Source of the DNA: a virus
Reading direction: 5' to 3' (one strand)
DNA length: 53,083 nucleotides
Virus record (IMG/VR): IMGVR_UViG_3300029258_001854
The notes under the pieces were generated by a model that worked only from the letters and a program-made list of their open reading frames with translations, did no database searches and was not told the origin of the DNA. Below are positions 16,687-41,962 of the stretch, piece by piece. Numbering within the stretch: the stretch's first letter is position 1; each line of letters begins with the position of its first letter. The position numbers and the translations under genes are program-made.

Positions 16687-16695
16687 ATTATAGCG
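16687..16695 (-). promoter_or_regulatory. CGCTATAAT promoter (-10), copy 5, driving the late block
   Basis: The minus strand reads TTCGCTATAATAAAGGTAAAGGAGCAATTCATG. The same 9-mer occurs at four plus-strand sites. Confidence 0.55.
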
Positions 16696-22116: not shown

Positions 22117-22341
22117 ATGGGACTCACAATTGCAAAGATGGAACAGGAGTTTCTTGACATCACTGGCTATGAAAGCATCAATGAGTATCTCGACAGTGGA
22201 GAGGCTCTTGATAGCATTCAGCTGGGGATCTGCAAGGAATGTGGGTACAGCACCAATGTGGAACCGGATCAGGACAAGGGCTGGTGTGCACAATGTGATG
22301 CTGGTACTGTTCAGTCCATTCTCGTCATCTTGGGTATGTGA
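22117..22341 (+). CDS. Zinc-ribbon small protein
   Basis: GGAGGAAGTATG start. CKECGY...CAQCD. Confidence 0.6.
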   Translation: MGLTIAKMEQEFLDITGYESINEYLDSGEALDSIQLGICKECGYSTNVEPDQDKGWCAQCDAGTVQSILVILGM

Positions 22342-22784
22342 TGAACTGCTTTGTGACTAGCAAACAAAAGTTCTGGTCAGATTGGCACCCGAGTGGAGAG
22401 TTCTCAGTCATCTCCATTCAGTCTCCTCCCACACCTTGGGGTGAAGGCAGCTTGACTCCAATAGATGAAAGGTGGACTCAATCCATTGTCCTTGAGTTCC
22501 ATGACATTCTCCCTGATGATACAGTGGACAGGCCGTACACTTTGTTCAGCAAGGAGATGGCAAGTGAGCTCTTTGACTTTATCAGCAGTAGAGTCAAGAG
22601 GGGCAATGAACATAGCTTCCTAGTTCACTGTGATGCTGGAATGAGCAGATCTGTGGCAGTGGGTATGTTCATCAAGGAATACTACAACTACTTTCTGCAC
22701 CTCGAAGTTGCCCAGGATTGTAGCGCGTACAATGTGCACGTTTTTAATCTACTCCGAAGGCAATGGATGCAGAAAGAGGGGTAG
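22341..22784 (+). CDS. Cys-based phosphatase-like protein (CX5R motif)
   Basis: FLVHCDAGMSRSVAVGMF matches the HC-X5-R-S signature of protein-tyrosine/dual-specificity/polynucleotide phosphatases. Confidence 0.6.
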   Translation: MNCFVTSKQKFWSDWHPSGEFSVISIQSPPTPWGEGSLTPIDERWTQSIVLEFHDILPDDTVDRPYTLFSKEMASELFDFISSRVKRGNEHSFLVHCDAGMSRSVAVGMFIKEYYNYFLHLEVAQDCSAYNVHVFNLLRRQWMQKEG

Positions 22785-22840: not shown

Positions 22841-23326
22841 ATGAACATCTTTTATCTTCACGCCGATCCTCACGTTGCTGCACAATATCAGTGTGACAAG
22901 CATGTTGTCAAGATGATTCTTGAGACTGCTCAAATGCTGAGTACAGCACATCGGGAGTTGTCAGACGAGTGTGATATTCCTGAGCATGCCTATAAGGCAA
23001 CTCATGTCAATCATCCTTGCAGTATCTGGGTGCGTGAAAGTGGATACAACTACGAATGGGCATATGAGCACTTCATTGCCCTTTGTAAAGAGTATTCATT
23101 CAGATATGACAAGACCCACCTGACTTACAAAAAGCTAGGTGCATCACTCTTGCTTCCACCGACTAAGATGAAGCTGGGTCATTTCACCGAGCCTCCTCAG
23201 TGCATGCCAGATCAGTACAAGCACTCTGATCCTGTTCAAGCATACCGTGCCTATTACAAGGGTGATAAGGCAGATATTGCTCAATGGTCAAAGGGGCGAC
23301 CTGCTCCCAGTTGGTGGAAAGCATGA
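22841..23326 (+). CDS. Conserved viral protein of unknown function
   Basis: 161 aa. The N-terminal MNIFYLHADPHVAAQYQCDKHVVKMILETAQML looks like a motif I recall from other phage and giant-virus proteins. I do not assign a function. Confidence 0.6.
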   Translation: MNIFYLHADPHVAAQYQCDKHVVKMILETAQMLSTAHRELSDECDIPEHAYKATHVNHPCSIWVRESGYNYEWAYEHFIALCKEYSFRYDKTHLTYKKLGASLLLPPTKMKLGHFTEPPQCMPDQYKHSDPVQAYRAYYKGDKADIAQWSKGRPAPSWWKA

Positions 23327-24410: not shown

Positions 24411-24595
24411 CTACACAAGCGCAAAAGTATCGTAACAACCTCATAAGTGCTATAGGTACTGTTATGAGGGAGTGTCCTGATTTGACTTTCCAGCAAATCA
24501 TCAAATCAGTCTTTGATGGGAAGAGCATTCCTGCTGATGACAAAGATGCATATGATCAAATCATTCGCTGGATGATTAATCATGGGGACTCTTAG
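24407..24595 (+). CDS. Hypothetical small protein
   Basis: 62 aa. ATGA overlap upstream. Its last 10 nt overlap the tRNA 5' end. Confidence 0.55.
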   Translation: MTTQAQKYRNNLISAIGTVMRECPDLTFQQIIKSVFDGKSIPADDKDAYDQIIRWMINHGDS

Positions 24596-24662
24596 CTCAG
24601 TTGGTTAGAGCGCCCGGCTCATAACCGGATGGTCCTGGGTTCAAGTCCCAGAGAGTCCACCA
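24586..24662 (+). tRNA. tRNA, anticodon CAT (elongator Met or Ile2-lysidine type), CCA encoded
   Basis: Hand-folded cloverleaf: acceptor GGACTCT/AGAGTCC, D GCTC/GAGC, anticodon loop CTCATAA, T CTGGG-TTCAAGT-CCCAG, A73, CCA. Confidence 0.85.
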
Positions 24663-24678
24663 CTTTACTTGGAGCAAA

Positions 24679-24873
24679 ATGAACTGCACAATATGTAATG
24701 AGTATGTGAATCCAAAACGAATTAAAATTGGCTATAAAACTTGTCTAAAATGCGGTCAGCATTTTGCTGAAAAAGAATCAGCAAGAAGGAAGAAATGCAT
24801 TGCTCCTGCATTCAACAAAGGTCCATACATGTATGTGACTGGTAAAAGTATGGCAAAGGATGTAGGCAAGTAA
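24679..24873 (+). CDS. TraR/DksA-like C4 zinc-finger protein (tentative)
   Basis: CTICNEYVNPKRIKIGYKTCLKCGQ. GGAG lies upstream. Confidence 0.5.
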   Translation: MNCTICNEYVNPKRIKIGYKTCLKCGQHFAEKESARRKKCIAPAFNKGPYMYVTGKSMAKDVGK

Positions 24874-24916
24874 AGCTCGCCCCTGCTGGCATACCGGGGT
24901 CTAAACTTGTATGCCA

Positions 24917-25018
24917 CTATATGGATACCCATTAGAACAAATACCGTGGATGCGGAGTGTTAATTGGGACAGGCGGTTTGTCCCCACTCATGCAACCGTC
25001 TAATGGGTATCCACATAG
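24917..25018 (+). ncRNA. Candidate stable RNA: 102-nt rod-like imperfect hairpin
   Basis: 24917-24936 pairs 19/20 with 24999-25018. Inner helices: TGC/GCA, GGAGTG/CACTC, GGGACA-7 nt-TGTCCC. Confidence 0.5.
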
Positions 25019-25161
25019 TATTTTATTGTTGAAGCATTATCAGGTGTATGGGCGTTGCAGGACGCTGCGACAGAGCAAGCGTGGCTCAGAGAAAATGGCC
25101 AACTCAAAACACGAGGGCTGCTTCTTAACTTTGGTGCGGTAGGTAACACCAGAGACTATGT

Positions 25162-25236
25162 GCCGATTTAGCTCAGAGGTAGAGCAGCTGATTTGTAATC
25201 AGCAGGTCGTCAGTTCGAATCTGACAGTCGGCTCCA
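25162..25236 (+). tRNA. tRNA-Thr (anticodon TGT), CCA encoded
   Basis: Acceptor GCCGATT/AGTCGGC, anticodon stem GCTGA/TCAGC, loop TTTGTAA, T GTCAG-TTCGAAT-CTGAC. Confidence 0.9.
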
Positions 25237-25256
25237 TTTAACAACAGGGGTGCAAT

Positions 25257-25364
25257 ATGCCTGGATCTGGAAAAGCAAAGCAGAAGAAGATGGCAAAGAA
25301 GAAGCGGCACAAGGAGTGCCTTGCCATCAAGCGCAAGAAGAAGGCTGAAAAGAAGGGGAAGTAG
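25257..25364 (+). CDS. Lys-rich micro-ORF (35 aa)
   Basis: MPGSGKAKQKKMAKKKRHKECLAIKRKKKAEKKGK. AGGGG lies upstream. The 3' end overlaps the next tRNA by 10 nt. Confidence 0.35.
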   Translation: MPGSGKAKQKKMAKKKRHKECLAIKRKKKAEKKGK

Positions 25365-25430
25365 CCCAACGGCAGAGGCAGGAGACTTAAAATCTCTACA
25401 GTGTGGGTTCGAATCCCACCTTCCCTACCA
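25355..25430 (+). tRNA. tRNA with anticodon TAA (Leu by anticodon) but a class I (5-nt) variable region, CCA encoded
   Basis: Exactly 76 nt with standard numbering. Acceptor GGGGAAG/CTTCCCT (G1.U72), loop CTTAAAA, variable ACAGT, T GTGGG-TTCGAAT-CCCAC, A73. Confidence 0.75.
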
Positions 25431-25448
25431 TTTTAATGAGGAATTTGA

Positions 25449-25592
25449 ATGATGCCTAGAATTGGTGATGATCTTACACTTGAGCCGCCTCTTGATCCTC
25501 CTGATGATGATGAAGTGTGCGATGATGAGTATGACTACTCAGATTATGAGTCAAAGGAAGACAATGCTGCGTACTGGGGTGACTGGGATTGA
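25449..25592 (+). CDS. Acidic micro-protein (47 aa)
   Basis: GAGGAATTTGAATG cassette. MMPRIGDDLTLEPPLDPPDDDEVCDDEYDYSDYESKEDNAAYWGDWD. Confidence 0.5.
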   Translation: MMPRIGDDLTLEPPLDPPDDDEVCDDEYDYSDYESKEDNAAYWGDWD

Positions 25593-25996
25593 CCTCTAAC
25601 ACTCTTTACATTCTCAGGGGTGTTCCTGGGTCTGGTAAGACCACTCTTGCCAACTTGATGACTATTGGATTCAATTCTGTGGACATTCATGCTGTGGCCT
25701 ATGCTGCTGATGATTACTTCACAGATGAGAATGGCAATTACAGGTTTGACAAGAAGCGTCTTGGCGAAGCTCATGATTGGTGCCAGGACAGAGTGCTCGC
25801 TGATATGAGAGCAAGGATTCCTGTCATCATTGTGCACAACACTTTCGTCCAGATTTGGGAGATGAAGCCGTATATGGATATGGCAGATGAGAGTGGTTAC
25901 ATTGTCAATGAGATTGTCTGTAAGGGGCGATGGATGAATCAGCATGGAGTCCCTGATGAAGTCATTATCAGTATGCAGAATCGTTGGGAAGATTGA
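25589..25996 (+). CDS. P-loop kinase-like ATPase (AAA_33/polynucleotide-kinase-like)
   Basis: TTG start with TTGA overlap. Walker A GVPGSGKTT. Short 135-aa kinase-sized fold. Confidence 0.65.
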   Translation: MTSNTLYILRGVPGSGKTTLANLMTIGFNSVDIHAVAYAADDYFTDENGNYRFDKKRLGEAHDWCQDRVLADMRARIPVIIVHNTFVQIWEMKPYMDMADESGYIVNEIVCKGRWMNQHGVPDEVIISMQNRWED

Positions 25997-26003
25997 TAAA
26001 TAA

Positions 26004-26080
26004 GCACCCGTAGCTCAGTTGGATAGAGCAGCTGCCTTCTAAGCAGCGGGTCGCAGGTTCGAGTCCTGCCGGGTGCGCCA
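26004..26080 (+). tRNA. tRNA-Arg (anticodon TCT), CCA encoded
   Basis: Acceptor GCACCCG/CGGGTGC, anticodon stem GCTGC/GCAGC, loop CTTCTAA, T GCAGG-TTCGAGT-CCTGC. Confidence 0.92.
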
Positions 26081-26125
26081 TCACCCAAACTTTAGGTTTT
26101 ATAACCCAAAAGAAAGGTGGAAAGC

Positions 26126-26356
26126 ATGAAGGTTTTCGAGGAAATCGGAAGGTTCTGGTCTGCTAAATCTTTGCTAGTTGGAAAGATTGGAGAACATGAA
26201 CACTGGAAAGTTTATAGTGAACTAGAGACTGGGAACATTATTGAGTATTACGAAGACGGGGAGTGCAAGAAGGAGTTGGTACTACCGTGGGAGCCAGAGC
26301 TATTGATTGCCATTGGCGAAGCGATCTGCGCTCTAGGGAAAACAAATAATGAATAA
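26126..26356 (+). CDS. Hypothetical small protein
   Basis: ATG at 26126 after AAAGGTGG. 76 aa. Confidence 0.55.
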   Translation: MKVFEEIGRFWSAKSLLVGKIGEHEHWKVYSELETGNIIEYYEDGECKKELVLPWEPELLIAIGEAICALGKTNNE

Positions 26357-26801
26357 GTCTAAAGAAGCAGAGGACCGCATTGAAACGCTCCAATCTGAAG
26401 TTGAAGAAAGAAAGCGCTTGTGGGTTGAAGCGATGGACGAGGCACAGACGCAGAAAGATCGCGCCGCTGCCGCCGAGGCCCGCGCCGCCGAGTTGGAGGA
26501 CGAGCTGCGCCGTCGCCAGGAGATCATCGACGACGCGCGCATTCGGATGGACAAGCTTGACCTCGCAGACCGGCTGGCGGAGGCGGCGAAACCCGCGATC
26601 AAGCAACTCTTTAGCTACGATCACGCACCCGGCGTCCGAGTGGCCGTCCCTCTCAAGGAGGCCCTCGCCGCCTACCACTCGGCGAAAGCTGTCGTGAACG
26701 ATCCGCACCCGGACACGGAGCGGCTGGACTGGCTCCTCCGTGTCTACCGTCTCGACCGTGAAGCAATCGACGCAGCGCGGGAGGGGAGTCGTGAGGATTA
26801 A
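26349..26801 (+). CDS. Hypothetical coiled-coil protein, strongly GC-rich gene
   Basis: 150 aa rich in A/R/E. Its composition contrasts sharply with flanking DNA. It lies between tRNA-Arg and tRNA-Ile. Confidence 0.6.
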   Translation: MNKSKEAEDRIETLQSEVEERKRLWVEAMDEAQTQKDRAAAAEARAAELEDELRRRQEIIDDARIRMDKLDLADRLAEAAKPAIKQLFSYDHAPGVRVAVPLKEALAAYHSAKAVVNDPHPDTERLDWLLRVYRLDREAIDAAREGSRED

Positions 26802-26819
26802 ACTGTTCTACTCGCCAGA

Positions 26820-26896
26820 GGGCCTGTAGCTCAACTGGTTAGAGCACACGTCTTATAAGCGTGCGGTTGTGGGTTCGAGTCCCACCAGGCCAACCA
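26820..26896 (+). tRNA. tRNA-Ile (anticodon TAT), CCA encoded, G1-A72 mismatch
   Basis: Acceptor GGGCCTG/CAGGCCA, D GCTC/GAGC, loop CTTATAA, T GTGGG-TTCGAGT-CCCAC. Confidence 0.85.
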
Positions 26897-33703: not shown

Positions 33704-33756
33704 TCCCCGAGGGGTATCAGGCTTTGTATACGCCCCTCTAAGGGGCGAACGTCCGA

Positions 33757-33806
33757 CCCTAGCCTACCCTACCCCTAACGGAATAAAGTCGCATAGAGGC
33801 GATTCT
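33757..33806 (+). repeat. Repeat family copy 1 (CCCTAGCCTA...AAAGTCGCWTAGAGG), similar to 41881-41930
   Basis: CCCTAGCCTACCCTACCCCTAACGGAATAAAGTCGCATAGAGGCGATTCT. A third partial copy, CCCTAGCCTAGTCTAGCGG, lies at 33840-33858. Confidence 0.6.
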
Positions 33807-33902
33807 AGGGGTGTTAGCTGACACTTTTCGAGCATAGTTCCCTAGCCTAGTCTAGCGGCCAGGGGCGTAGGTATTTCACTACTTTCGCCAATCTATGTGA
33901 TG

Positions 33903-33911
33903 CGCTATAAT
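33903..33911 (+). promoter_or_regulatory. CGCTATAAT promoter (-10), copy 4
   Basis: GATGCGCTATAATAGG lies 24 nt upstream of the GTG at 33935. Confidence 0.6.
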
Positions 33912-33934
33912 AGGTTCTTAACCAAGGAGTTTTT

Positions 33935-34378
33935 GTGCCCAAACTGATCGTTTTGCTCAATGAAGGTCTTTACAAGACTGTAGAATGTGAACCTGAATTT
34001 GAACTAAATTTCTTAAATGGAATAATTGGAGGCTGGCCTGAGTGTGCACTTCAGGTTCCAAGCCCTAGCTATCTTTTTGAAAGTGTAAATGGAACAGACT
34101 GGTCACTTGATCTGTGGTGTGATGAGGAGGGCCATCTCAAGCGCCTGCCTTTCACAGTTAATAGACCAACTGACTTGCACCCTCTTGTTGGTCCAATTGT
34201 CATTTGCAACAGAAGAGAGTTTTGGTGTGATGATGGCAGGGACTTTAGACTCAGACCATTTGATGATAATACTACAAAACAGATCCGGGATGTTCTTCGT
34301 GAAAGAAACTGGGCTGAAGAAGTTTTCAATGCTGGTGATGTAGGATCACCTGAAACAGATGGCGGAGAAGCAGCATAA
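33935..34378 (+). CDS. DUF3846-like protein (tentative)
   Basis: GTG start after AAGGAG. LWCDEEGHLKRLPFTVNR...GPIVIC resembles the DUF3846 consensus as I recall it. Confidence 0.5.
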   Translation: MPKLIVLLNEGLYKTVECEPEFELNFLNGIIGGWPECALQVPSPSYLFESVNGTDWSLDLWCDEEGHLKRLPFTVNRPTDLHPLVGPIVICNRREFWCDDGRDFRLRPFDDNTTKQIRDVLRERNWAEEVFNAGDVGSPETDGGEAA

Positions 34379-35328
34379 TGTATATAATTGGTGCAGGTAT
34401 GGCTGGGTGTTTAGCAGCTATACATTTTCCCAATTCAGTCATACTAGAAGGCAATCCTGAACCAACTAGGAATCATTTTGCACTTCTAAGAATGAGAACA
34501 AATAGAATTGAGGAGATGACTGGAATAAAATTCAAAAGAATTATAGTTGATAAATTCATATGGGATGAGCAGACGTATGACTGTACACAGTCTGTTCTTC
34601 CTAGACACATAATCAATTATTCAAGAAAGGTCTCTGGTGTAGCATCCAGCAGATCCATAGTGAACTTAGAACCAGAATTGAGATTTATACCTCCTGATGA
34701 TTTTCATAGCATCATGCTAAATAATCTTGAAGGTAGAATTAAATATGATCAAAAAGTAACAAGTATAACCCCAAATTATATTGAGTGTGATGGTGGTGCA
34801 TATGAGACTGGGTTTGAGCCTACTATAAGCACACTTCCCATATCTGTGAATATGAAGGCCACAGGTATTGATGTTGATTATCAGCCTAACATTCCTGAGT
34901 CTAAGACCATATATGTTCGCAGGATTAAGCTGAAAAAATTCAATATGTTTACCACTATATACTTTCCAGATCCAATTGTGAATGTATATAGGGCAAGCAT
35001 TTCTGGCGATATACTTACAATTGAAAGTATTGATGAGCCTTGCTCTGATGTATCTATGAAAGTTGCTTTCCAAGCTTTTGGTCTTGATGTTGAAGCAAGT
35101 GGTGATTATACAATACTAGATAAAAGCATAAAGCAGATTAATGGAAAGATAATTTCATTAGATGATAATGCTAGGAAATTAGCACTGTTTGAAATGACCA
35201 AGAAATGCAATTTGTATTCCCTTGGTAGATTTGCCTGTTGGCGTCAGATACTTCTTGATGATGTTGTAAATGACATAAAGCAGATTCACAAAATGATAAC
35301 AACTCACCCGTATGATAGGATCTTGTAA
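34378..35328 (+). CDS. FAD/NAD(P)-binding oxidoreductase-like protein
   Basis: N-terminal Rossmann dinucleotide motif MYIIGAGMAGCLAA. TAATG junction with the upstream gene and TAATG with thyX. Confidence 0.65.
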   Translation: MYIIGAGMAGCLAAIHFPNSVILEGNPEPTRNHFALLRMRTNRIEEMTGIKFKRIIVDKFIWDEQTYDCTQSVLPRHIINYSRKVSGVASSRSIVNLEPELRFIPPDDFHSIMLNNLEGRIKYDQKVTSITPNYIECDGGAYETGFEPTISTLPISVNMKATGIDVDYQPNIPESKTIYVRRIKLKKFNMFTTIYFPDPIVNVYRASISGDILTIESIDEPCSDVSMKVAFQAFGLDVEASGDYTILDKSIKQINGKIISLDDNARKLALFEMTKKCNLYSLGRFACWRQILLDDVVNDIKQIHKMITTHPYDRIL

Positions 35329-36104
35329 TGGAAGTCAATCTAATCAACTATACTCCTGATGCTCTCGCACTTTTGATTTACACAAAGAACACTAGGCTTC
35401 AAGGCAAGATGTCTTTGCTGGAAATTAAAGAGGCATCTCCTGAGTGGCAAATGGAACAACTCTCTTATATGAGGGACACAATCAAATCAAGCTGGGAGTT
35501 TGTTGATTATGTTTTTGAGATTAACAATGTAAGTAGAGCATTTACACACCAGCTAGTTAGGACTCGACAAGGCTCATATGCACAAGAGTCACATCGCTCT
35601 GGTGATCTTAGTGATCATCTTTGGGTATCACCCTCAGTAGACAAATATGGTGGTGATGTTATTGCAGAATTTGATACTGCTATGGAAGTATCATTCAGAG
35701 CTTATGAGCAGCTTATTTCAGAGGGAATGGAAAGACAAGATGCTCGTGGCTTGATTCCTACAAATGTTGAGACTCACATCATTGCCAAGTTTAATTTGCG
35801 TACACTTCACCAGATGGCAGAAGTTAGGCTGTGCACAAGAACACAGGGTGAATACCAAGATGTATTCAGAGCGATGAAAGCTGCTATTATTGAAGTACAT
35901 CCTTGGGCTGATGACTTTATCAATGTGTTCTGTGCTAATCATGGCACGTGCTGCTTCCCCAGATACACTGAGTGTCCAATCCAAAAGTACACACTCAATA
36001 GCGATCAGGAAAGATTGAATACTGTCAAGAGAAATGTCCGTGATGAACATGAGCGCAATAGACATGCTGCCAATCCTGAGGCTCGTGGCGGGGAAACTAT
36101 GTGA
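35328..36104 (+). CDS. thyX: Flavin-dependent thymidylate synthase ThyX-like (variant RTR motif)
   Basis: The ThyX signature R-H-R-X2-S-X4-S-X-R is present as VRTRQGSYAQESHRS, with T in place of H. Confidence 0.75.
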   Translation: MEVNLINYTPDALALLIYTKNTRLQGKMSLLEIKEASPEWQMEQLSYMRDTIKSSWEFVDYVFEINNVSRAFTHQLVRTRQGSYAQESHRSGDLSDHLWVSPSVDKYGGDVIAEFDTAMEVSFRAYEQLISEGMERQDARGLIPTNVETHIIAKFNLRTLHQMAEVRLCTRTQGEYQDVFRAMKAAIIEVHPWADDFINVFCANHGTCCFPRYTECPIQKYTLNSDQERLNTVKRNVRDEHERNRHAANPEARGGETM

Positions 36105-36544
36105 TGGATAAGGCTTGGATTGTAGATCTGGATGGCACCCTTACTGATTGTGACTGGCGAGACCAAGTAAAGAAGAAAGCTGAAAAATCTGGAGTTTATG
36201 ATCTTTATGATCACTTAGGCCACTTTGATCCTCCTCGTCAAAATGTTATTGATTTAGTCAAGAGAGCTAGATCTGGTAATCGTAAGATCATGATTGTGAC
36301 TAGTCGCTCTGATGCTAGGCGAGATATTGCTATTGCTTTGCTTTCTCGTTTAGAAGTCAAGTTTGATGGTCTATTCATGAGGAAGGAAGGTGACTTGACC
36401 CCTACTGCTGAATACAAATTAGCAGAAGTTACAAATCTTACTTTTAATTATGAGATTGAAATGGTCATTGATGATCACCCTGAAGTTTGTAATATAATGA
36501 ATCAGTATGGCTACAATGTATGCAAAGCAGGGAGAGACATTTGA
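36101..36544 (+). CDS. HAD-superfamily phosphatase (polynucleotide 3'-phosphatase / nucleotidase-like)
   Basis: DxDxT motif WIVDLDGTLTD, a later TSRS, and VIDD. Confidence 0.7.
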   Translation: MMDKAWIVDLDGTLTDCDWRDQVKKKAEKSGVYDLYDHLGHFDPPRQNVIDLVKRARSGNRKIMIVTSRSDARRDIAIALLSRLEVKFDGLFMRKEGDLTPTAEYKLAEVTNLTFNYEIEMVIDDHPEVCNIMNQYGYNVCKAGRDI

Positions 36545-36867
36545 GGCCGGATGAATCGCTATTTGTACTGTCGGAACTCTATAGGCAAAGAAATGAAGAG
36601 TATGGGGACAATTACAAGAACTTCGGTGCTATCATAGAGGTTATGTTCCCTAATGGTATTCACCTTTCTTGTGCTAGTGATTTTAACCGGATTGCTGTTT
36701 TATTCCATATACTTGACAAAATCACTCGTTACATAGCAAACTTCGATAATGGTGGTCATCAGGACTCTCTTGATGATGTATCTGTGTACGCACAAATGCT
36801 AAAGGAACTTGATCTTGATAGAGCAGCTGTTCAGACTAGGGATGAAAAGAGAACTTCCTCAATTTAA
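36520..36867 (+). CDS. DUF1599-like helical protein (start uncertain; TTG at 36541 possible)
   Basis: RNEEYGDNY...RIAVLFHILDKITRY...DSLDDVSVYAQM resembles the DUF1599 consensus as I recall it. Confidence 0.55.
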   Translation: MQSRERHLRPDESLFVLSELYRQRNEEYGDNYKNFGAIIEVMFPNGIHLSCASDFNRIAVLFHILDKITRYIANFDNGGHQDSLDDVSVYAQMLKELDLDRAAVQTRDEKRTSSI

Positions 36868-37303
36868 GCAATGGCATAATGATGGCATCGTTCTAAATAT
36901 TGGAAGTGGTAATGATGTAATAAAAGGATCTGTAAATCTGGATCTTCCAGAATACAATGCTGATGTTGATCCAATTCCATTTGATGATGGTAGTGTAAGC
37001 ACAATTCATGCATACCATGTGATTGAGCATTTGGCCAATCCTATCTTTTTCATCAAAGAATGCCAACGTGTCTTAACAGTTGGTGGTCTAATTAATATTT
37101 GCGTTCCACATTACAAGTCTGAAATTGCTTGGCACGATTTGACTCATAGGAGAGCAGTTGCACTTGATACTTTTGAAACTTTGCTAAAAACTGAATATTA
37201 CAATACAGGGAATTGGGAACTTGAGCTTATTGGTTCTGTAGCAATAGGCATCGTTGATAGAAACTTAGCAATCCTCACACAACTGGAAAAGATAGAACTG
37301 TGA
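36809..37303 (+). CDS. Class I SAM-dependent methyltransferase (start uncertain; ATG at 36842 possible)
   Basis: Motif I VLNIGSGND, a post-I acidic residue, and YHVIEHL...VLTVGGLINICVP. Confidence 0.7.
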   Translation: MILIEQLFRLGMKRELPQFKQWHNDGIVLNIGSGNDVIKGSVNLDLPEYNADVDPIPFDDGSVSTIHAYHVIEHLANPIFFIKECQRVLTVGGLINICVPHYKSEIAWHDLTHRRAVALDTFETLLKTEYYNTGNWELELIGSVAIGIVDRNLAILTQLEKIEL

Positions 37304-37857
37304 TATATGTATTCTTTGATACAGAGACAACAGGCCTTTTAAAGCCTGAAGAAGTTAACCTCAATTTACAGCCTGAAATTATTGAGTTGTATATGGTTAA
37401 ACTCTCTCTTGATGAGAATAATGAATTCAATTTTGTAGATGAATTTAATAGCTTTATGCGTCCAAAGAGTATGCCTTTAGATCCAGTTATAACTAAGATC
37501 ACAAACATAACAAATGAAATGATTGCTGATGCCCCAACATTTATCAGCTTGTATCCCAAGATGGCTGAATTTATGACTGGAGTTGATGTCTTGGTAGGAC
37601 ACAACACTTCATTCGATGTTGGAATGGTATGGACTGAATTGGCAAGAATTGAGTGTGAGACTAAATTCCCTTGGCCAAGAATTCAGAAGTGCACAGTAGA
37701 GTTGAGTCTCCCAATTGAGCACCATAGATTAAAGCTAAGTGATCTTCACACAAAGGCTACAGGCCATCCGCATGATGGTGCTCATCGTGCTAAGGAAGAT
37801 ACCATGGCTTTAGTCACATGCTATAAATGGCTTATGGAAGAGGGATATGCTCTGTGA
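37300..37857 (+). CDS. DnaQ-like 3'-5' exonuclease (DEDDh)
   Basis: Exo I FFDTETTGL, Exo II GHNTSFDVGM, Exo III HRAKEDTMA. GTGA overlap upstream. Confidence 0.85.
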   Translation: MIYVFFDTETTGLLKPEEVNLNLQPEIIELYMVKLSLDENNEFNFVDEFNSFMRPKSMPLDPVITKITNITNEMIADAPTFISLYPKMAEFMTGVDVLVGHNTSFDVGMVWTELARIECETKFPWPRIQKCTVELSLPIEHHRLKLSDLHTKATGHPHDGAHRAKEDTMALVTCYKWLMEEGYAL

Positions 37858-40661
37858 TAAATTTAGCATTAAGAACTGAATATTCATTCGATACATTTGC
37901 ACACATTAAGGATATTGTAAATACCGGTGGGTCTGCTATTGGTATTGCAGATCAGAATTCCACCTTTGGTCATTATCAGCATTACAAATTATGCAAAGAG
38001 AAGGGCATCAAACCTATTCTTGGTGTAAGGCTTATGGTTACAAAGCCAAGAGAATGGGTAGAAACTGAAGGCAAAAGAGTAAAGATGTGGGGGCCTGTTT
38101 ACATCTTTATTGCCAAAAATAGAGATGGCCTAATAGAAACATACAAACTTGTAAAGAAAGCATATTCAAATTTTTATTATCATCCATTTATTGAAATTAC
38201 TGATGTAAGTGATTTATCTGATAATATAATTGTAATTGCTGAAGACATTCAATTTCCTGATAGAGTTGATTACATAGGCATTAGTCCTAAAACATCAGCA
38301 AAGGTCTTGCTCAATACTGATATACCAAAAGTAGCAATATCTTGTAATAAGTATATCCACCCAAATGATAGAAGAACATATCAGCTTTTGTCTGGCTCTC
38401 AAAGAAGTGGACAAACTTATCCTGAATATATTTTGTCAGAAGATGAGCATCTGGCAATCTGTGGTAGCAGGGAGGCCATAGAAAATACATACAAGATTGC
38501 TGACCAATGTGATGTTGAGTTTATCAAATCAGATATGGTCAAATATAAAGGCTTGGCTAATTTTGATCTGCTATGTAAGAACGGTGCAAAGAAGAAGGGA
38601 ATTGATTTAGAAGACCCTGTTTACAAAGAGAGATTTGAGAAAGAAGTCAGACTCATCAAAGAGAAGAATTATCTTGATTACTTTCTCATTGTTTCTGATA
38701 TGATCAAGTATGCAAAAGAGACAATGTTTGTTGGTCCAAGTAGAGGATCAAGTGCAGGATCTCTGATTTGCTATCTTCTTGATATTACAGAGATTGATCC
38801 GATCAAGTACGATCTCATCTTTGAAAGATTTATTGATATCAATCGTGCAGACTTGCCAGATATTGATATTGATTTCCCTGATGTTAGCAGAAACAAAGTA
38901 GTCAAATATCTTGCCAATAAATATGGACAAGATAGAGTTGCTCATATTGCTACAATATCAAGACTAAAGCCTAAGTCAGCAATAGGCATCTTCGGCAAAA
39001 ATCTTAGTATTCCTTTTGCTGATTGCGAGGATGTTAAGGGAGCAATTATTGAAAGAAGTGGTGGTGATGCTCGGGCTGCTATGTGCATCACAGATACCTT
39101 TGATACAACTGAAGTTGGTAAAGACTTTGTTGAGAGGTATCCAAGCATGCGCCTTGTTGAAAAGGTTGAGAATCACGCATCCCATACTGGTACACATGCT
39201 GCAGGCATCATTGTTTGTAATGATCCTCTCACAGATTACTGTGGAGTAAATACTCGTGAGAATGTAATCATGTTAGACAAGCACGAAGCAGAAGGATTGA
39301 ATCTGCTTAAGATTGATTGCCTTGGTCTTCGTACTTTGTCTATTCTACAGGAAGTAGCTGATCGTGCTGGTATGCACTATTCTGATTATTACAATCTTGA
39401 TCTTGAGGATGAGAATGTATACAAGACTCTAAATGATATGCGCTTATTTGGAGTATTTCAATTTGAAGGATATGCTCTACAAGCAGTTACCCGTGAAATG
39501 GGTTGTACAGAATTTAATGATATTGCTGCAATTACATCACTAGCTAGACCTGGGCCTTTACAGTCTGGTGGTGCTAATTTGTATATCAAAAGAAGGATTG
39601 GTGTCGAAGAGGTTGAATACCTTAGTGAGCATCCTAGTGTAATAAATACTACAAAAGACACTTATGGAATTATCATCTATCAAGAGCAGCTGATGAGAAT
39701 TGCCAGGGAATATGGAATGATGTCATGGGAAGATGTTAGTGATCTTCGTAAGGCAGCATCCAAGTCTCTTGGTGAAGAGTTCTTTAACAAGTATAAAGAC
39801 AAGTTTATGGAAGGCACTGCATCACAAGGAATAGACCCAAGAGAAGCAGAGCATGTATGGAGTAACATGATGACTTTTGGATCTTGGGGATTCAATAAAA
39901 GTCATGCTGTTAGCTATGCTTTGATTTCTTACTGGACTGCTTGGGCTAAGACATACTACCCATTAGAGTTCTGTGCTGCTAACATGAACAATGCTAGAAG
40001 TGAGCAATCTGCAATACGCATTCTTAGAGAAATGGTAAAGAATGAAGGTATTGATTATGTTGCAATAGATCCTGATGAATCTACAGAAAGATGGGAAATA
40101 CACGATGGTAAGCTGATAGGAGGCTTAACCAATATTAAGGGTATTGGCCCAAAGAAAGCAGTTGATATAATCAAAAGAAGAAAGAATGGGAACCTTACTC
40201 CCAAGATGGTTGATATGCTTCTCAACCCTCAAACTCCTTTCAATATATTATTTCCTGCTAAGCATTATTGGGGTGATATATATGAAAACCCAATGAAGTT
40301 TGGATTGAATGGGAAAATATCTGAAATCTGTGACATCAGGGATCAGGGTGAGTATCTATTTATAGGCAGGCTTGCAGATAGAAACTTGAGAGATCTGAAT
40401 GAATATCAGCTTGTAGTTAAGAGAGGTGGAGACATCATTGAAAATGATACTCTTTATCTTAACTTAACACTGGAGGATGATACAGAATCAATTAGTTGTA
40501 CAATTGGTCGTTTTGATTATGAAAGGCTAGGTAGAAATATAGCAGAAAATGGTAAAGTTGATCATGACTGGTATTTAGTATTCGGCATAATTGACAGCCA
40601 TTGGCGTAGAATCAAAATTAAGAATATAATTAACCTTTGGGAGTGGGCAAAGGATGATTGA
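37854..40661 (+). CDS. dnaE: DNA polymerase III alpha subunit (DnaE-type)
   Basis: PHP-like N-terminus, GPSRGSSAGS, DIDIDF, HAAGIIV, KIDCLGLRTL, FQFEG, RPGP, IIYQEQ, FNKSHAVSYA. The GTG at 37854 overlaps the exonuclease stop; the tracked start is 37827. Confidence 0.9.
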   Translation: MINLALRTEYSFDTFAHIKDIVNTGGSAIGIADQNSTFGHYQHYKLCKEKGIKPILGVRLMVTKPREWVETEGKRVKMWGPVYIFIAKNRDGLIETYKLVKKAYSNFYYHPFIEITDVSDLSDNIIVIAEDIQFPDRVDYIGISPKTSAKVLLNTDIPKVAISCNKYIHPNDRRTYQLLSGSQRSGQTYPEYILSEDEHLAICGSREAIENTYKIADQCDVEFIKSDMVKYKGLANFDLLCKNGAKKKGIDLEDPVYKERFEKEVRLIKEKNYLDYFLIVSDMIKYAKETMFVGPSRGSSAGSLICYLLDITEIDPIKYDLIFERFIDINRADLPDIDIDFPDVSRNKVVKYLANKYGQDRVAHIATISRLKPKSAIGIFGKNLSIPFADCEDVKGAIIERSGGDARAAMCITDTFDTTEVGKDFVERYPSMRLVEKVENHASHTGTHAAGIIVCNDPLTDYCGVNTRENVIMLDKHEAEGLNLLKIDCLGLRTLSILQEVADRAGMHYSDYYNLDLEDENVYKTLNDMRLFGVFQFEGYALQAVTREMGCTEFNDIAAITSLARPGPLQSGGANLYIKRRIGVEEVEYLSEHPSVINTTKDTYGIIIYQEQLMRIAREYGMMSWEDVSDLRKAASKSLGEEFFNKYKDKFMEGTASQGIDPREAEHVWSNMMTFGSWGFNKSHAVSYALISYWTAWAKTYYPLEFCAANMNNARSEQSAIRILREMVKNEGIDYVAIDPDESTERWEIHDGKLIGGLTNIKGIGPKKAVDIIKRRKNGNLTPKMVDMLLNPQTPFNILFPAKHYWGDIYENPMKFGLNGKISEICDIRDQGEYLFIGRLADRNLRDLNEYQLVVKRGGDIIENDTLYLNLTLEDDTESISCTIGRFDYERLGRNIAENGKVDHDWYLVFGIIDSHWRRIKIKNIINLWEWAKDD

Positions 40662-41709
40662 GCTTTTCAAGAAAACTAAAGATGGTATTAGGTATTGGTC
40701 AATTGATATTGAATACCCGACAGCAGAGCTAATAATTGACTATGGTTGGCTTAATGGTGCAATACAGACTCAGTATGAAAGTGTAGAAGAGAATGAGTCT
40801 GGTAGACCAATTGATGAACAACTTGAGCTAAGAAGAGACTCAAGAGTAAATGCCAAGATTGATTCTGGATATAGGTATACAGTTGATCAAGCTATAGCAG
40901 AGGCTGGTCAGAACACTCTTGGTTTTTACAGGCCTATGCTTGCTAAGAGATTTGATCAAATCAAAAATATAAACTGGGAGAACATGTGGTGCCAAAATAA
41001 GTATGATGGCCATAGGTGTCTTATGAGAAGAACGCAAGATGGAATAGTTGCTTATTCTAGGCAAGGCAAAGAGATCACCACTATAGATCACATTACATCA
41101 AGTATGCATATACCATTTAATGCTACACTAGATGGAGAGCTATATTGCCACGGAGAAAGTCTGCAGCGAATTAGCTCATGGGTTAAAAGGAAGCAAATAA
41201 ATACAAAGAAAATTGAATATGTCGTTTATGATTTGGTATCTAAAACAGAACCATATTATGAAAGATATAATAGAATCAAGAATATGAATCTTGGTGAAAA
41301 TGCAAGAATGGCACCAACAGACAAAACAATATCAGCTGAGCATGTTACACACATGTTACAAAGTTCTATTTATGCAGGATATGAAGGGCTTATCCTAAGA
41401 GACAAAAATGCAAAATATGAAGTTGGTGCAAGATCAAAAGGTCTGATTAAAGTAAAGAAATTTCTTGATTCAGAATTCAAAGTTTTGGATGTAATTGAAT
41501 CATCAGATGGTTGGGGCATTTTAGTTTGCGATACTGGCAAAAGATCAAAGTTCAGAGTTTCTGCTCCAGGAACAATTCCAGAGAAGACTAAAATTCTCAA
41601 TAATAAGCACGACTATATTGGCCAGTTGGTCACAGTTGAATATGCTAACATGACTGCAGATGGAGTACCATTCCACCCTGTGGCAATTAGATTCAGAGAA
41701 GACATATGA
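40654..41709 (+). CDS. lig: ATP-dependent DNA ligase
   Basis: Motif I KYDGHR, motif IV EGLILRD, motif V LIKVKK. Confidence 0.85.
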   Translation: MIELFKKTKDGIRYWSIDIEYPTAELIIDYGWLNGAIQTQYESVEENESGRPIDEQLELRRDSRVNAKIDSGYRYTVDQAIAEAGQNTLGFYRPMLAKRFDQIKNINWENMWCQNKYDGHRCLMRRTQDGIVAYSRQGKEITTIDHITSSMHIPFNATLDGELYCHGESLQRISSWVKRKQINTKKIEYVVYDLVSKTEPYYERYNRIKNMNLGENARMAPTDKTISAEHVTHMLQSSIYAGYEGLILRDKNAKYEVGARSKGLIKVKKFLDSEFKVLDVIESSDGWGILVCDTGKRSKFRVSAPGTIPEKTKILNNKHDYIGQLVTVEYANMTADGVPFHPVAIRFREDI

Positions 41710-41846: not shown

Positions 41847-41854
41847 AACAAAAA

Positions 41855-41927
41855 AGCCCCTCTAAGCGCCTAGATTCTTCCCCTAGCCTAGCCTATAGGC
41901 TCTGAGAAAAAGTCGCTTAGAGGGGCT
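41855..41927. terminator. Convergence-point terminator: perfect 14-bp stem with a 45-nt loop (repeat family copy 2)
   Basis: AGCCCCTCTAAGCG (41855-41868) pairs with CGCTTAGAGGGGCT (41914-41927). An A5 run on the 5' side gives a U-tract for minus-strand transcripts. Confidence 0.6.
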
Positions 41928-41962
41928 TCTGCACGGCCCTAGGTAGCGTTTTAGGGACGAAG

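Follow-up and report, generated by a model that had tools for sequence, protein, structure and literature searches.

A variant ThyX paired with a phage-exclusive FAD-fold protein: a candidate module for thymidine modification in phages

The DNA analyzed here (the window) is IMG/VR record IMGVR_UViG_3300029258_001854, a complete metagenomic phage contig of 53,083 bp. Its replication operon encodes a divergent ThyX homologue (ThyXv) and, directly upstream, a flavin adenine dinucleotide (FAD)-fold protein (FADp). Comparison with related loci indicated a conserved module, exclusive to phages, in which FADp and ThyXv are joined by a HAD phosphatase and a DUF6378-like helical protein and which adjoins exonuclease and polymerase genes on their 5' side. 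The interpretation put forward, tentatively and with slightly less than even confidence, is that FADp and ThyXv constitute a two-flavoprotein system making a C5-modified deoxyuridine monophosphate (dUMP) precursor for DNA modification. Orthologues occur in Pbunavirus, and the module is the leading candidate pathway for the thymidine modification of that genus.

Results

Pairing of FADp and ThyXv across phages

Eighty viral contigs in IMG/VR encoding relatives of FADp at 34 to 45% identity were collected, three isolates were added, and the open reading frames (ORFs) of these 83 loci were searched with the window proteins. ThyXv was found 3' of FADp in 81 loci, and the stop-to-stop ORFs of the pair abutted or overlapped in 38 of the 81. 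The DUF6378-like protein was found in 68 loci, and the exonuclease and DNA polymerase III alpha subunit (PolIII alpha) lay 3' of the module in 57 and 55, respectively. The HAD domain was detected in 20 loci by phmmer, and ORF clustering placed a joint HAD/helical family in 72. An earlier note on this DNA, made from the letters alone, had described six clustered genes and looked to their co-occurrence across relatives; four of them proved to be conserved together, while the methyltransferase gene was present in 7 loci and the DUF3846-like gene in none.

The pairing extended to cultured phages. Among 50,697 isolates, FADp was present in 362 and ThyXv in 347 (≥80% coverage), with Pseudomonas phages accounting for 292 of each, followed for both proteins by phages of Escherichia, Serratia, Rhizobium, and Xanthomonas. 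The order FADp, ThyXv, helical protein was kept over several genera, including Pbunavirus, Wifcevirus, and a Vibrio podovirus. Isolates with the module include Serratia MTx, Xanthomonas XcP1, and Vibrio VA-RY-3. No FADp-like gene was found within ~1.5 kb of canonical-type ThyX in the sampled regions of Gordonia, Mycobacterium, and Bacillus phages and an archaeal virus, and these three bacterial genera were missing from the ten most frequent FADp hosts. A search of 185,579 species genomes of prokaryotes gave seven matches to FADp, all on contigs of 3 to 59 kb (five of 18 to 59 kb) from metagenome-assembled genomes. Because of this co-occurrence in loci and isolates, the absence near canonical ThyX, and the few matches restricted to metagenome-assembled genomes, FADp is regarded, on comparative grounds, as a phage-exclusive obligate partner of this ThyX clade.

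One alternative is that the genes are unrelated neighbors in a replication and repair operon, with ThyXv a plain or decaying thymidylate (dTMP) synthase and the others serving separate roles, such as end-healing repair by the PNKP-type HAD phosphatase and the ligase. Mixed, unrelated functions are indeed common in early operons of phages. Against this stand the gene order kept in several genera and in 80 contigs at 34 to 45% identity, the 1-nt overlap of FADp and ThyXv in the window, and the abutting or overlapping ORFs elsewhere; together with the evidence on ThyXv and the HAD phosphatase below, these make the alternative improbable.

Variable genes within the module

In each of the 80 IMG/VR loci, the ORFs that separate FADp from PolIII alpha were collected; all were clustered, and representatives were scanned with Pfam. 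Additional genes in this interval were predicted to encode a short-chain dehydrogenase (SDR; 43 loci), a glyoxalase/VOC-fold protein (38 loci), NodU/CmcH-type carbamoyltransferases (3 to 4 loci), sulfotransferases (3 loci), and radical SAM/SPASM proteins (3 loci). Several of these enzymes, namely the SDR and the carbamoyl-, sulfo-, and methyltransferases, are of hydroxyl-directed types. A fixed core accompanied by such interchangeable enzymes suggests the layout of a diversifying modification pathway rather than that of a housekeeping dTMP cassette.

The window carries its own lineage-specific genes at either end of the cluster. The match of the DUF3846-like protein to DUF3846 (PF12957) covered residues 48 to 93 only and scored 26.7 bits, just below the 27.5-bit cutoff; the protein had no PHROG match. 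The class I S-adenosylmethionine (SAM) methyltransferase of the earlier note was borne out by a Methyltransf_11 score of 34 bits (cutoff, 21.2 bits) with motif I LNIGSGND. No DNA-methyltransferase motif (DPPY or PC-Q) was seen on reading its sequence. The closest solved structure was that of a sterol C-methyltransferase, with a weaker likeness to a D-glucose O-methyltransferase, and the NCBIfam search returned a weak match to MftM, a sugar O-methyltransferase. The protein appears to be of the small-molecule type and is a lineage-specific candidate tailoring enzyme; translation may in fact begin with the ATG at 36842.

Active site of ThyXv

ThyXv has the ThyX fold: Foldseek aligned it at TMt 0.74 to 0.80 with ThyX structures 1o2a, 8req, and 7ndz, including that of Thermotoga maritima, and the Thy1 match was strong (Table 1). 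Against the equivalog model TIGR02170 it scored 85.7 bits, under the cutoff of 87.9. In the window the signature segment, VRTRQGSYAQESHRS (residues 77 to 91), reads R78-T79-R80-QG-S83-YAQE-S88-H-R90, which does not match the canonical RHRxxSxxxxSxR.

Residues were tallied in 112 nonredundant FADp-linked sequences aligned with T. maritima ThyX and canonical-type phage ThyX. Gln75 and five arginines, at the positions of T. maritima R78, R80, R90, R147, and R174, were kept in 111 to 112 of the 112 (in ThyXv numbering, Q75, R78, R80, R90, R140, and R167). Of these, R78, R90, R147, and R174 are dUMP contacts of canonical ThyX, as mapped here to T. maritima numbering from residues of the Mycobacterium tuberculosis and Helicobacter pylori enzymes (PMC6514825). 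ThyXv thus shares with canonical ThyX (TM0449 and the M. tuberculosis enzyme) the fold, the RxR...S...SxR motif, Gln75, and five arginines.

The surroundings of the reaction center differed. The His53 position was Ile in all 112 sequences, and the Tyr91 position was never Tyr (Val in 54, Thr in 29, Ala in 21, Ser in 7, and Ile in 1). Asn85 was replaced by Ala (98) or Gln (14), and His79 by Thr (96), Ser (14), or Asn (2); the Ser88 position was Ser in 47, Thr in 44, and Ala in 21. Canonical ThyX has HGHxSxxEH where ThyXv has DTIxSSWEF, and in every ThyXv Glu86 is also changed to Gln and Tyr91 to a small residue. The His-to-Thr replacement emphasized in the earlier note is real and the protein divergent, but the active site is altered at several positions, of which this one is not the most informative.

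In canonical ThyX, Tyr91 and Ser88 are strictly conserved and critical, and mutation of Tyr91 slows methylation-linked flavin oxidation ~1,000-fold; His53, positioned by Tyr91 and Asn85, stacks against the pterin of the folate or against reduced flavin (PMC11940539). Uracil C5 and flavin N5 lie under a lid formed by the tyrosine (PMC6514825). Since His53, Asn85, and Tyr91 are always replaced, ThyXv appears to have kept the nucleotide site and lost the folate-gating and acid-catalysis apparatus, opening the reaction center. Fifty columns were invariant among 41 ThyXv sequences, and because constraint is this strong the protein does not look like a decaying synthase, as the unrelated-neighbors explanation would allow.

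These residues bear on a second alternative, a two-component thymidylate synthase in which ThyXv makes ordinary dTMP and FADp takes over either the reduction of flavin or the delivery of the one-carbon unit. The HAD and helical proteins would then be pool housekeeping enzymes comparable to a MazG-like partner, and other genes would make the Pbunavirus modification. The strong Thy1 match, the ThyX fold, and the retention of Gln75 and all conserved arginines fit this explanation. It is harder to reconcile with the replacement of Tyr91, His53, and Asn85 throughout, and of Ser88 in a fifth of the sequences, since mutagenesis shows that these residues are needed for methylation (PMC11940539).

ThyXv also has four cysteines, C169, C202, C208, and C216 (window positions ~35832 to 35975). 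Each of the 112 sequences had either all four (73) or none (39), never only some of them; because the pattern is all-or-none, the cysteines are taken to form one putative metal site (Zn or Fe-S). This C-terminal site and the pairing with FADp are features of ThyXv that are additional to canonical ThyX. Cysteines equivalent to most of these positions were seen in the 'ThyX-like' proteins of actinophages Lambo and KandZ, and to some of them in the ThyX of Sulfolobus virus STSV1. The distribution suggests an undescribed metal site across a wide subset of viral ThyX proteins.

Predicted fold of FADp

The 316-aa GxGxxG FAD-fold protein of the earlier note was supported by motif and by structure prediction. 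FADp carries GAGMAG at residues 5 to 10 (G5-A-G7-M-A-G10), followed by an invariant Glu24, and an AlphaFold2 model built from an alignment of 55 homologues had a pLDDT of 93. Searched with Foldseek against the Protein Data Bank (PDB), the model gave 467 matches at E ≤ 1e-3; the 50 matches listed were all flavoenzymes or structural-genomics proteins that were labeled oxidoreductase or unnamed. The best TM-scores were to UDP-galactopyranose mutase (UGM; TMq 0.66 to 0.67), followed by amine oxidases and PHBH/TetX-type monooxygenases. At the sequence level, FADp had no match in Pfam or NCBIfam, a PDB sequence search was empty, and phrog_4828, to which it belongs, is a family of unknown function; at least 585 homologues were found, none of them named. 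FADp is thus, by its modeled structure, a GR2-type FAD-fold protein in a sequence family of its own.

Identity as a UGM was considered and rejected: there was no Pfam GLF match, and an hhalign comparison of the FADp family profile with Escherichia coli Glf aligned only the N-terminal 29 residues, the Rossmann motif, at 5.6% probability, leaving a likeness at the level of fold. The C-terminal LGRFAxW...DD of FADp presumably resembles the UGM motif GRxxxYxYxxMD. With GR2 flavoenzymes (UGM, flavin amine oxidases, and the PHBH/TetX type) FADp has in common the GxGxxG motif, the acidic residue, and a two-domain fold (Foldseek probability 1.0, TMq 0.58 to 0.67); unlike them it is much smaller, is confined to phages, and lacks a sequence-level match to any of their families. 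On functional grounds it can be likened to TrmFO and MnmG, folate- and FAD-dependent uracil-C5 methylases. In the homologue alignment eight Arg/Lys residues were invariant and three more nearly so; because so many are invariant, an anionic substrate is suggested.

The predicted fold also bears on the two-component thymidylate synthase. FADp has the single-dinucleotide GR2 type of fold seen in oxidases, mutases, and monooxygenases; by its fold class it would be without the separate NAD(P)H domain of two-dinucleotide-domain reductases, and this counts against that alternative.

HAD phosphatase and DUF6378-like protein

The DxDxT phosphatase of the earlier note was recovered as DLDGT, with HAD_PNKP at 49.2 bits (cutoff, 27.6 bits), phrog_415 at 7e-24, and a weak hit on 4xrp, the phosphatase domain of Pnkp1. 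In Wifcevirus and in ORF57 of Pbunavirus, a single protein combines this domain with the helical one. The PNKP 3'-phosphatase type, the ATP-dependent ligase closing the same operon, and the PHROG name of the fused form, 'polynucleotide kinase/phosphorylase,' would suit the unrelated-neighbors explanation; the repeated fusion of the HAD and helical domains speaks against it.

The helical protein had been assigned to DUF1599. At E ≤ 0.1, neither the window protein nor a single one of 34 family members matched DUF1599. The match of the window protein was to DUF6378 (PF19905) and was weak (19.5 bits; cutoff, 27.1 bits); DUF6378 matches were found in 25 of the 34 family members (best E, 9e-6), with precomputed PF19905 assignments for some homologues. 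Residues K67, R70, D82, S83, D86, and Y90 were invariant. A later start (108 aa) is chosen by gene callers elsewhere. The family profile gave only spurious POU-domain matches in the PDB and no detected relation to a phage MazG-like pyrophosphatase (probability 0.3%), and a profile search for homologues returned only unnamed small proteins.

Module orthologues in Pbunavirus and Wifcevirus

In a preprint of 2025, the Weigele and Bondy-Denomy laboratories reported that virion DNA of the Pbunavirus phages F8 and 14-1 resists enzymes with TG in their site and that new nucleosides derived from thymidine, of 362 and 390 Da, take the place of about one-quarter of T. They were explained as one tetrose sugar-alcohol and one cyclized aldopentose derivative; Pbunavirus lacks homologues of known modification genes, and no biosynthetic genes were identified (PMC12191111). 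In 14-1, ORF65 corresponds to FADp, ORF59 to ThyXv, and ORF57 to a fusion of the HAD and DUF6378 domains, with exonuclease and PolIII alpha next. F8 and 14-1 thus carry module orthologues in the order of the window, at ~35 to 42% identity to the window proteins. They differ from the window in having small ORFs between FADp and ThyXv; the window phage, which is uncultured, lacks these and adds the methyltransferase. Wifcevirus, which shows restriction-modification resistance without a known mechanism (PMC11990801), has the module plus an SDR.

In the regions of Pbunavirus and Wifcevirus that were examined, ThyXv was the only pyrimidine-C5 enzyme found. By our own mass arithmetic, the reported nucleosides fit a 5-hydroxymethyl-deoxyuridine core (258 + 122 − 18 = 362; 258 + 150 − 18 = 390), and a C-linked polyol fits equally (deoxyuridine + pentose + 2H − H2O = 362; deoxyuridine + hexose − H2O = 390).

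The modifications of F8 and 14-1 differ (PMC12191111). Between the two phages, FADp, ThyXv, exonuclease, and polymerase are 94 to 98% identical, and the HAD and DUF6378 domains are 87 to 88% identical; with the small ORF58, ORF60, and ORF61, these domains make up the most divergent part (78 to 88%). Control of sugar specificity by the HAD and DUF6378 domains was considered on this basis and set aside, the divergence being suggestive and too weak for an assignment.

Genes of the 5-hydroxymethyl-deoxyuridine route of Lee et al. (2018, 2021) (a ThyA-type dUMP hydroxymethylase, 5-HMUDK, aGPT-Pplase, and tailoring enzymes dependent on pyridoxal phosphate or radical SAM) were not found in Pfam and PHROG scans of the operon and the larger plus-strand ORFs of the window. 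In the literature pairing ThyX with phage hypermodification, no paper was found that gives this ThyX clade or FADp a function.

Operon organization and other features of the window

All six ORFs were confirmed at the coordinates of the earlier note, on the plus strand and beginning 231 nt past a helicase gene. Reading of the sequence showed TAATG junctions with a 1-nt overlap between the DUF3846-like and FADp genes and between the FADp and ThyXv genes, and GTGA junctions with a 4-nt overlap between ThyXv and HAD and between methyltransferase and exonuclease. The HAD and DUF6378-like ORFs overlap by 25 nt, and the latter overlaps the methyltransferase by 59 nt with a TTG start or by 26 nt with the ATG start. 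The coupling through TAATG, ATGA, and GTGA that had been described therefore holds for TAATG (twice) and GTGA (twice); a literal ATGA occurs at none of the junctions of the six genes, the other overlaps being longer. Because overlaps run on past 37303, with 31 nt between exonuclease and PolIII alpha and 8 nt between PolIII alpha and ligase, the coupled unit is a nine-gene phage replication operon (33902 to 41709), of which the six real and coupled genes form the 5' part.

Table 1. Features of the operon region (window coordinates)
Feature	Position	Strand	Basis
GC-rich element, upstream copy (GCCCCTCTAAG, CCCTAGCCTA, AAAGTCGCATAGAGG)	33732-33800	+	weaker, more degenerate copy
GCGCTATAAT, -10-like promoter element heading the operon	33902-33911	+	sequence read
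Ribosome-binding site AAGGAG	33924-33929	+	precedes GTG start at 33935
DUF3846-like protein, 147 aa	33935-34378	+	Pfam DUF3846 6e-6
FADp, 316 aa	34378-35328	+	GR2 FAD fold; phrog_4828 1e-77
ThyXv, 258 aa	35328-36104	+	Pfam Thy1 (PF02511) 5.4e-34, residues 5-193
HAD phosphatase, PNKP-phosphatase type	36101-36544	+	Pfam HAD_PNKP (PF25109) 8e-13; DLDGT at residues 9-13
DUF6378-like helical protein	36520-36867	+	Pfam DUF6378 1e-3; phrog_4889 C-terminal part 1e-12
Small class I SAM methyltransferase	36809-37303	+	Pfam Methyltransf_11 5e-8; phrog_6636 8e-39
RNase T-type proofreading exonuclease	37300-37857	+	Pfam, PHROG
DnaE-type PolIII alpha	37827-40661	+	Pfam, PHROG
ATP-dependent DNA ligase, last operon gene	40654-41709	+	Pfam, PHROG
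GC-rich element, downstream copy	41854-41928	+	long stable hairpin

The single promoter that had been placed ahead of the cluster was recovered as the CGCTATAAT element at 33902, which is real; it lacks a good TTGACA -35 hexamer, and because the -35 is weak the site was not listed by a generic sigma-70 scan. With up to one mismatch, the GCGCTATAAT-type motif occurs eight times in the window (2.1 expected; 0 of 100 shuffles reached eight). The CGCTATAAT-type copies lie at 503, 19252, 22801, 23987, and 33902 on the plus strand and at 16687, 22717, and 52898 on the minus strand; at least three (22801, 23987, and 33902) are 30 to 90 nt 5' of an ORF start, and several have a CTTTCnnCA-like stretch ~14 nt upstream. 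The motif is probably a recurring promoter type of the phage's own, early or middle. No Rfam family, and hence no riboswitch, was found in the 231-nt leader.

Two GC-rich elements bracket the operon and have GCCCCTCTAAG, CCCTAGCCTA, and AAAGTCGCnTAGAGG in common. The downstream copy forms a hairpin with 18-nt arms (94% complementary; RNA minimum free energy, −40.9 kcal/mol; z-score, −3.7) and is probably the operon terminator, between convergent transcription units.

Elsewhere in the window, ORF 22841 to 23326 was predicted to encode a T4 DenV-like pyrimidine-dimer DNA glycosylase (Pyr_excise; phrog_624), with a CGCTATAAT-type promoter motif 5' of the gene. Homologues lie inside the FADp module in 12 related loci, and cyanophages and T4-like phages widely carry the family. 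As a DNA-level partner of the module it was rejected, given this wide distribution and its presence in 38 Pseudomonas-phage records versus 292 with FADp. The early region also contains five tRNA genes (24586 to 26896; Met-CAT, Thr-TGT, Leu-TAA, Arg-TCT, and Ile-TAT), and a 148-aa ORF at 22338 to 22784, in a PHROG family of unknown function (phrog_5614), has a weak dual-specificity-phosphatase signature (DSPc, 2e-4, below cutoff).

Discussion

Proposed route to a modified nucleotide

The comparison establishes gene order, conservation, folds, residue changes, and distribution among phages; from these we infer the substrate and product of the module, the role of each of its proteins, and the presence of modified DNA in the window phage. 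ThyXv would bind dUMP and flavin and activate C5 as ThyX does, and ThyXv and FADp together would install at C5 a substituent that is not, or not only, the methyl group of dTMP; a hydroxymethyl or polyol group seems likeliest. Loss of the tyrosine lid and of the His53 gate could let water, or a larger partner, reach the exocyclic methylene or a flavin-N5 adduct. The HAD phosphatase and the helical protein may act on a phosphorylated intermediate or tune the nucleotide pool, and the co-transcribed PolIII alpha replisome would incorporate the product into DNA. Lineage-specific enzymes, in the window the small SAM methyltransferase, could then decorate the modified base. On this view, the sugar-type hypermodified thymidine of Pbunavirus would have its genetic origin in the module. 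In its most specific form, the proposal is of a new enzyme system that attaches a non-methyl group at C5 of dUMP, either hydroxymethyl or a sugar-derived polyol by way of a UGM-like flavin-N5 adduct, and that underlies the Pbunavirus modification; this version is offered as a possibility held with clearly less than even confidence.

Related enzymes offer partial parallels. ThyA homologues have been described as flavin-dependent dCMP 5-hydroxylases that feed arabinosylated cytosine in phages (PMC13326640). Like ThyXv, the ThyA-family dUMP and dCMP hydroxymethylases and 5-hydroxy-dCMP synthases have an altered active site and are phage encoded near tailoring-type enzymes (PMC8989533, PMC13326640). 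They feed a modified pyrimidine mononucleotide into DNA, as the FADp/ThyXv module may do; their fold is not homologous to that of ThyX, and a second flavoprotein appears obligatory only in the FADp/ThyXv module. PolB of polyoxin biosynthesis, a bacterial ThyX paralogue cited in PMC5954106 as a UMP/dUMP C5-methylase, would be a ThyX homologue similarly recruited for a C5-modified pyrimidine nucleotide of a secondary product; unlike the FADp-paired ThyXv, it still methylates and is not known to need a partner flavoprotein.

Evidence weighing against DNA modification

Several observations count against a precursor for modified DNA. The module is linked to the Pbunavirus modification by co-occurrence only. 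That modification lies in a TG context and affects ~25% of T (PMC12191111), as might be expected if DNA itself were modified in a sequence-specific step; the conserved arginines of ThyXv, by contrast, favor a mononucleotide as its substrate. Among the larger plus-strand ORFs of the window that were scanned, neither a glycosyltransferase nor a kinase was found. In one close relative (L024, 5664 to 10922), FADp is kept and ThyXv is absent from the 12 kb examined, the order being helicase, FADp, HAD, exonuclease, carbamoyltransferase and methyltransferase, and then PolIII alpha; FADp can therefore persist without an adjacent ThyXv.

The examined regions of Pbunavirus and Wifcevirus showed no other annotated thymidylate synthase, and we know of none elsewhere in these genomes. 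Most T in these phages is canonical, and ThyXv could be the plain source of dTMP. Canonical-ThyX phages are similar in synteny, MazG standing where the window has the HAD and DUF6378-like proteins, and the module could be a derived nucleotide-supply cassette.

Among these phages, ThyX lies within ~1.5 kb of a DnaE-type PolIII alpha in Gordonia phage Lambo and Mycobacterium phage KandZ, and a MazG-like pyrophosphatase is encoded near ThyX in Lambo and in Bacillus phage Mgbh1. Actinophage canonical ThyX thus adjoins a DnaE-type polymerase, as ThyXv does.

The same points favor the two-component thymidylate synthase. A position immediately 5' of exonuclease and PolIII alpha, the nearness of canonical ThyX to DnaE and MazG-like genes, and the lack of another annotated synthase in the regions examined all suit a dTMP supply; so do the canonical bulk of Pbunavirus T (PMC12191111) and the TG-context specificity, which speaks against a mononucleotide-level route to the final modification. 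It leaves unexplained the variable enzymes embedded in the module and, as noted above, sits poorly with the active-site replacements and the FADp fold. We regard the two-component synthase as a serious rival, plausible without being probable. The base-modification pathway raised in the earlier note has gained strong circumstantial support, from the pairing in 81 of 83 loci, the active site, the variable enzymes, and the occurrence in Pbunavirus and Wifcevirus, and dTMP synthesis continues to compete with it.

Implications

If the module does produce a C5-modified dUMP for DNA, it would be a sequence marker predicting modified DNA in hundreds of isolates and in uncultured phages numbering several hundred or more, the window phage included. 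Among Pseudomonas aeruginosa phages, pbunaviruses belong to those used most in therapy. The restriction resistance of Wifcevirus could also be explained by the module, and in the window phage the methyltransferase would further modify the C5 group. Should ThyXv make dTMP only, the pair would still represent a two-component variant, not described before, of an enzyme that is under study as an antibiotic target. Under the modification reading, the ThyX fold would join the thymidylate-synthase families retooled by phages for new base chemistry, and ThyXv, as a thymidylate-synthase-family enzyme that may have been turned to phage DNA modification, offers a real chance of new enzymology.

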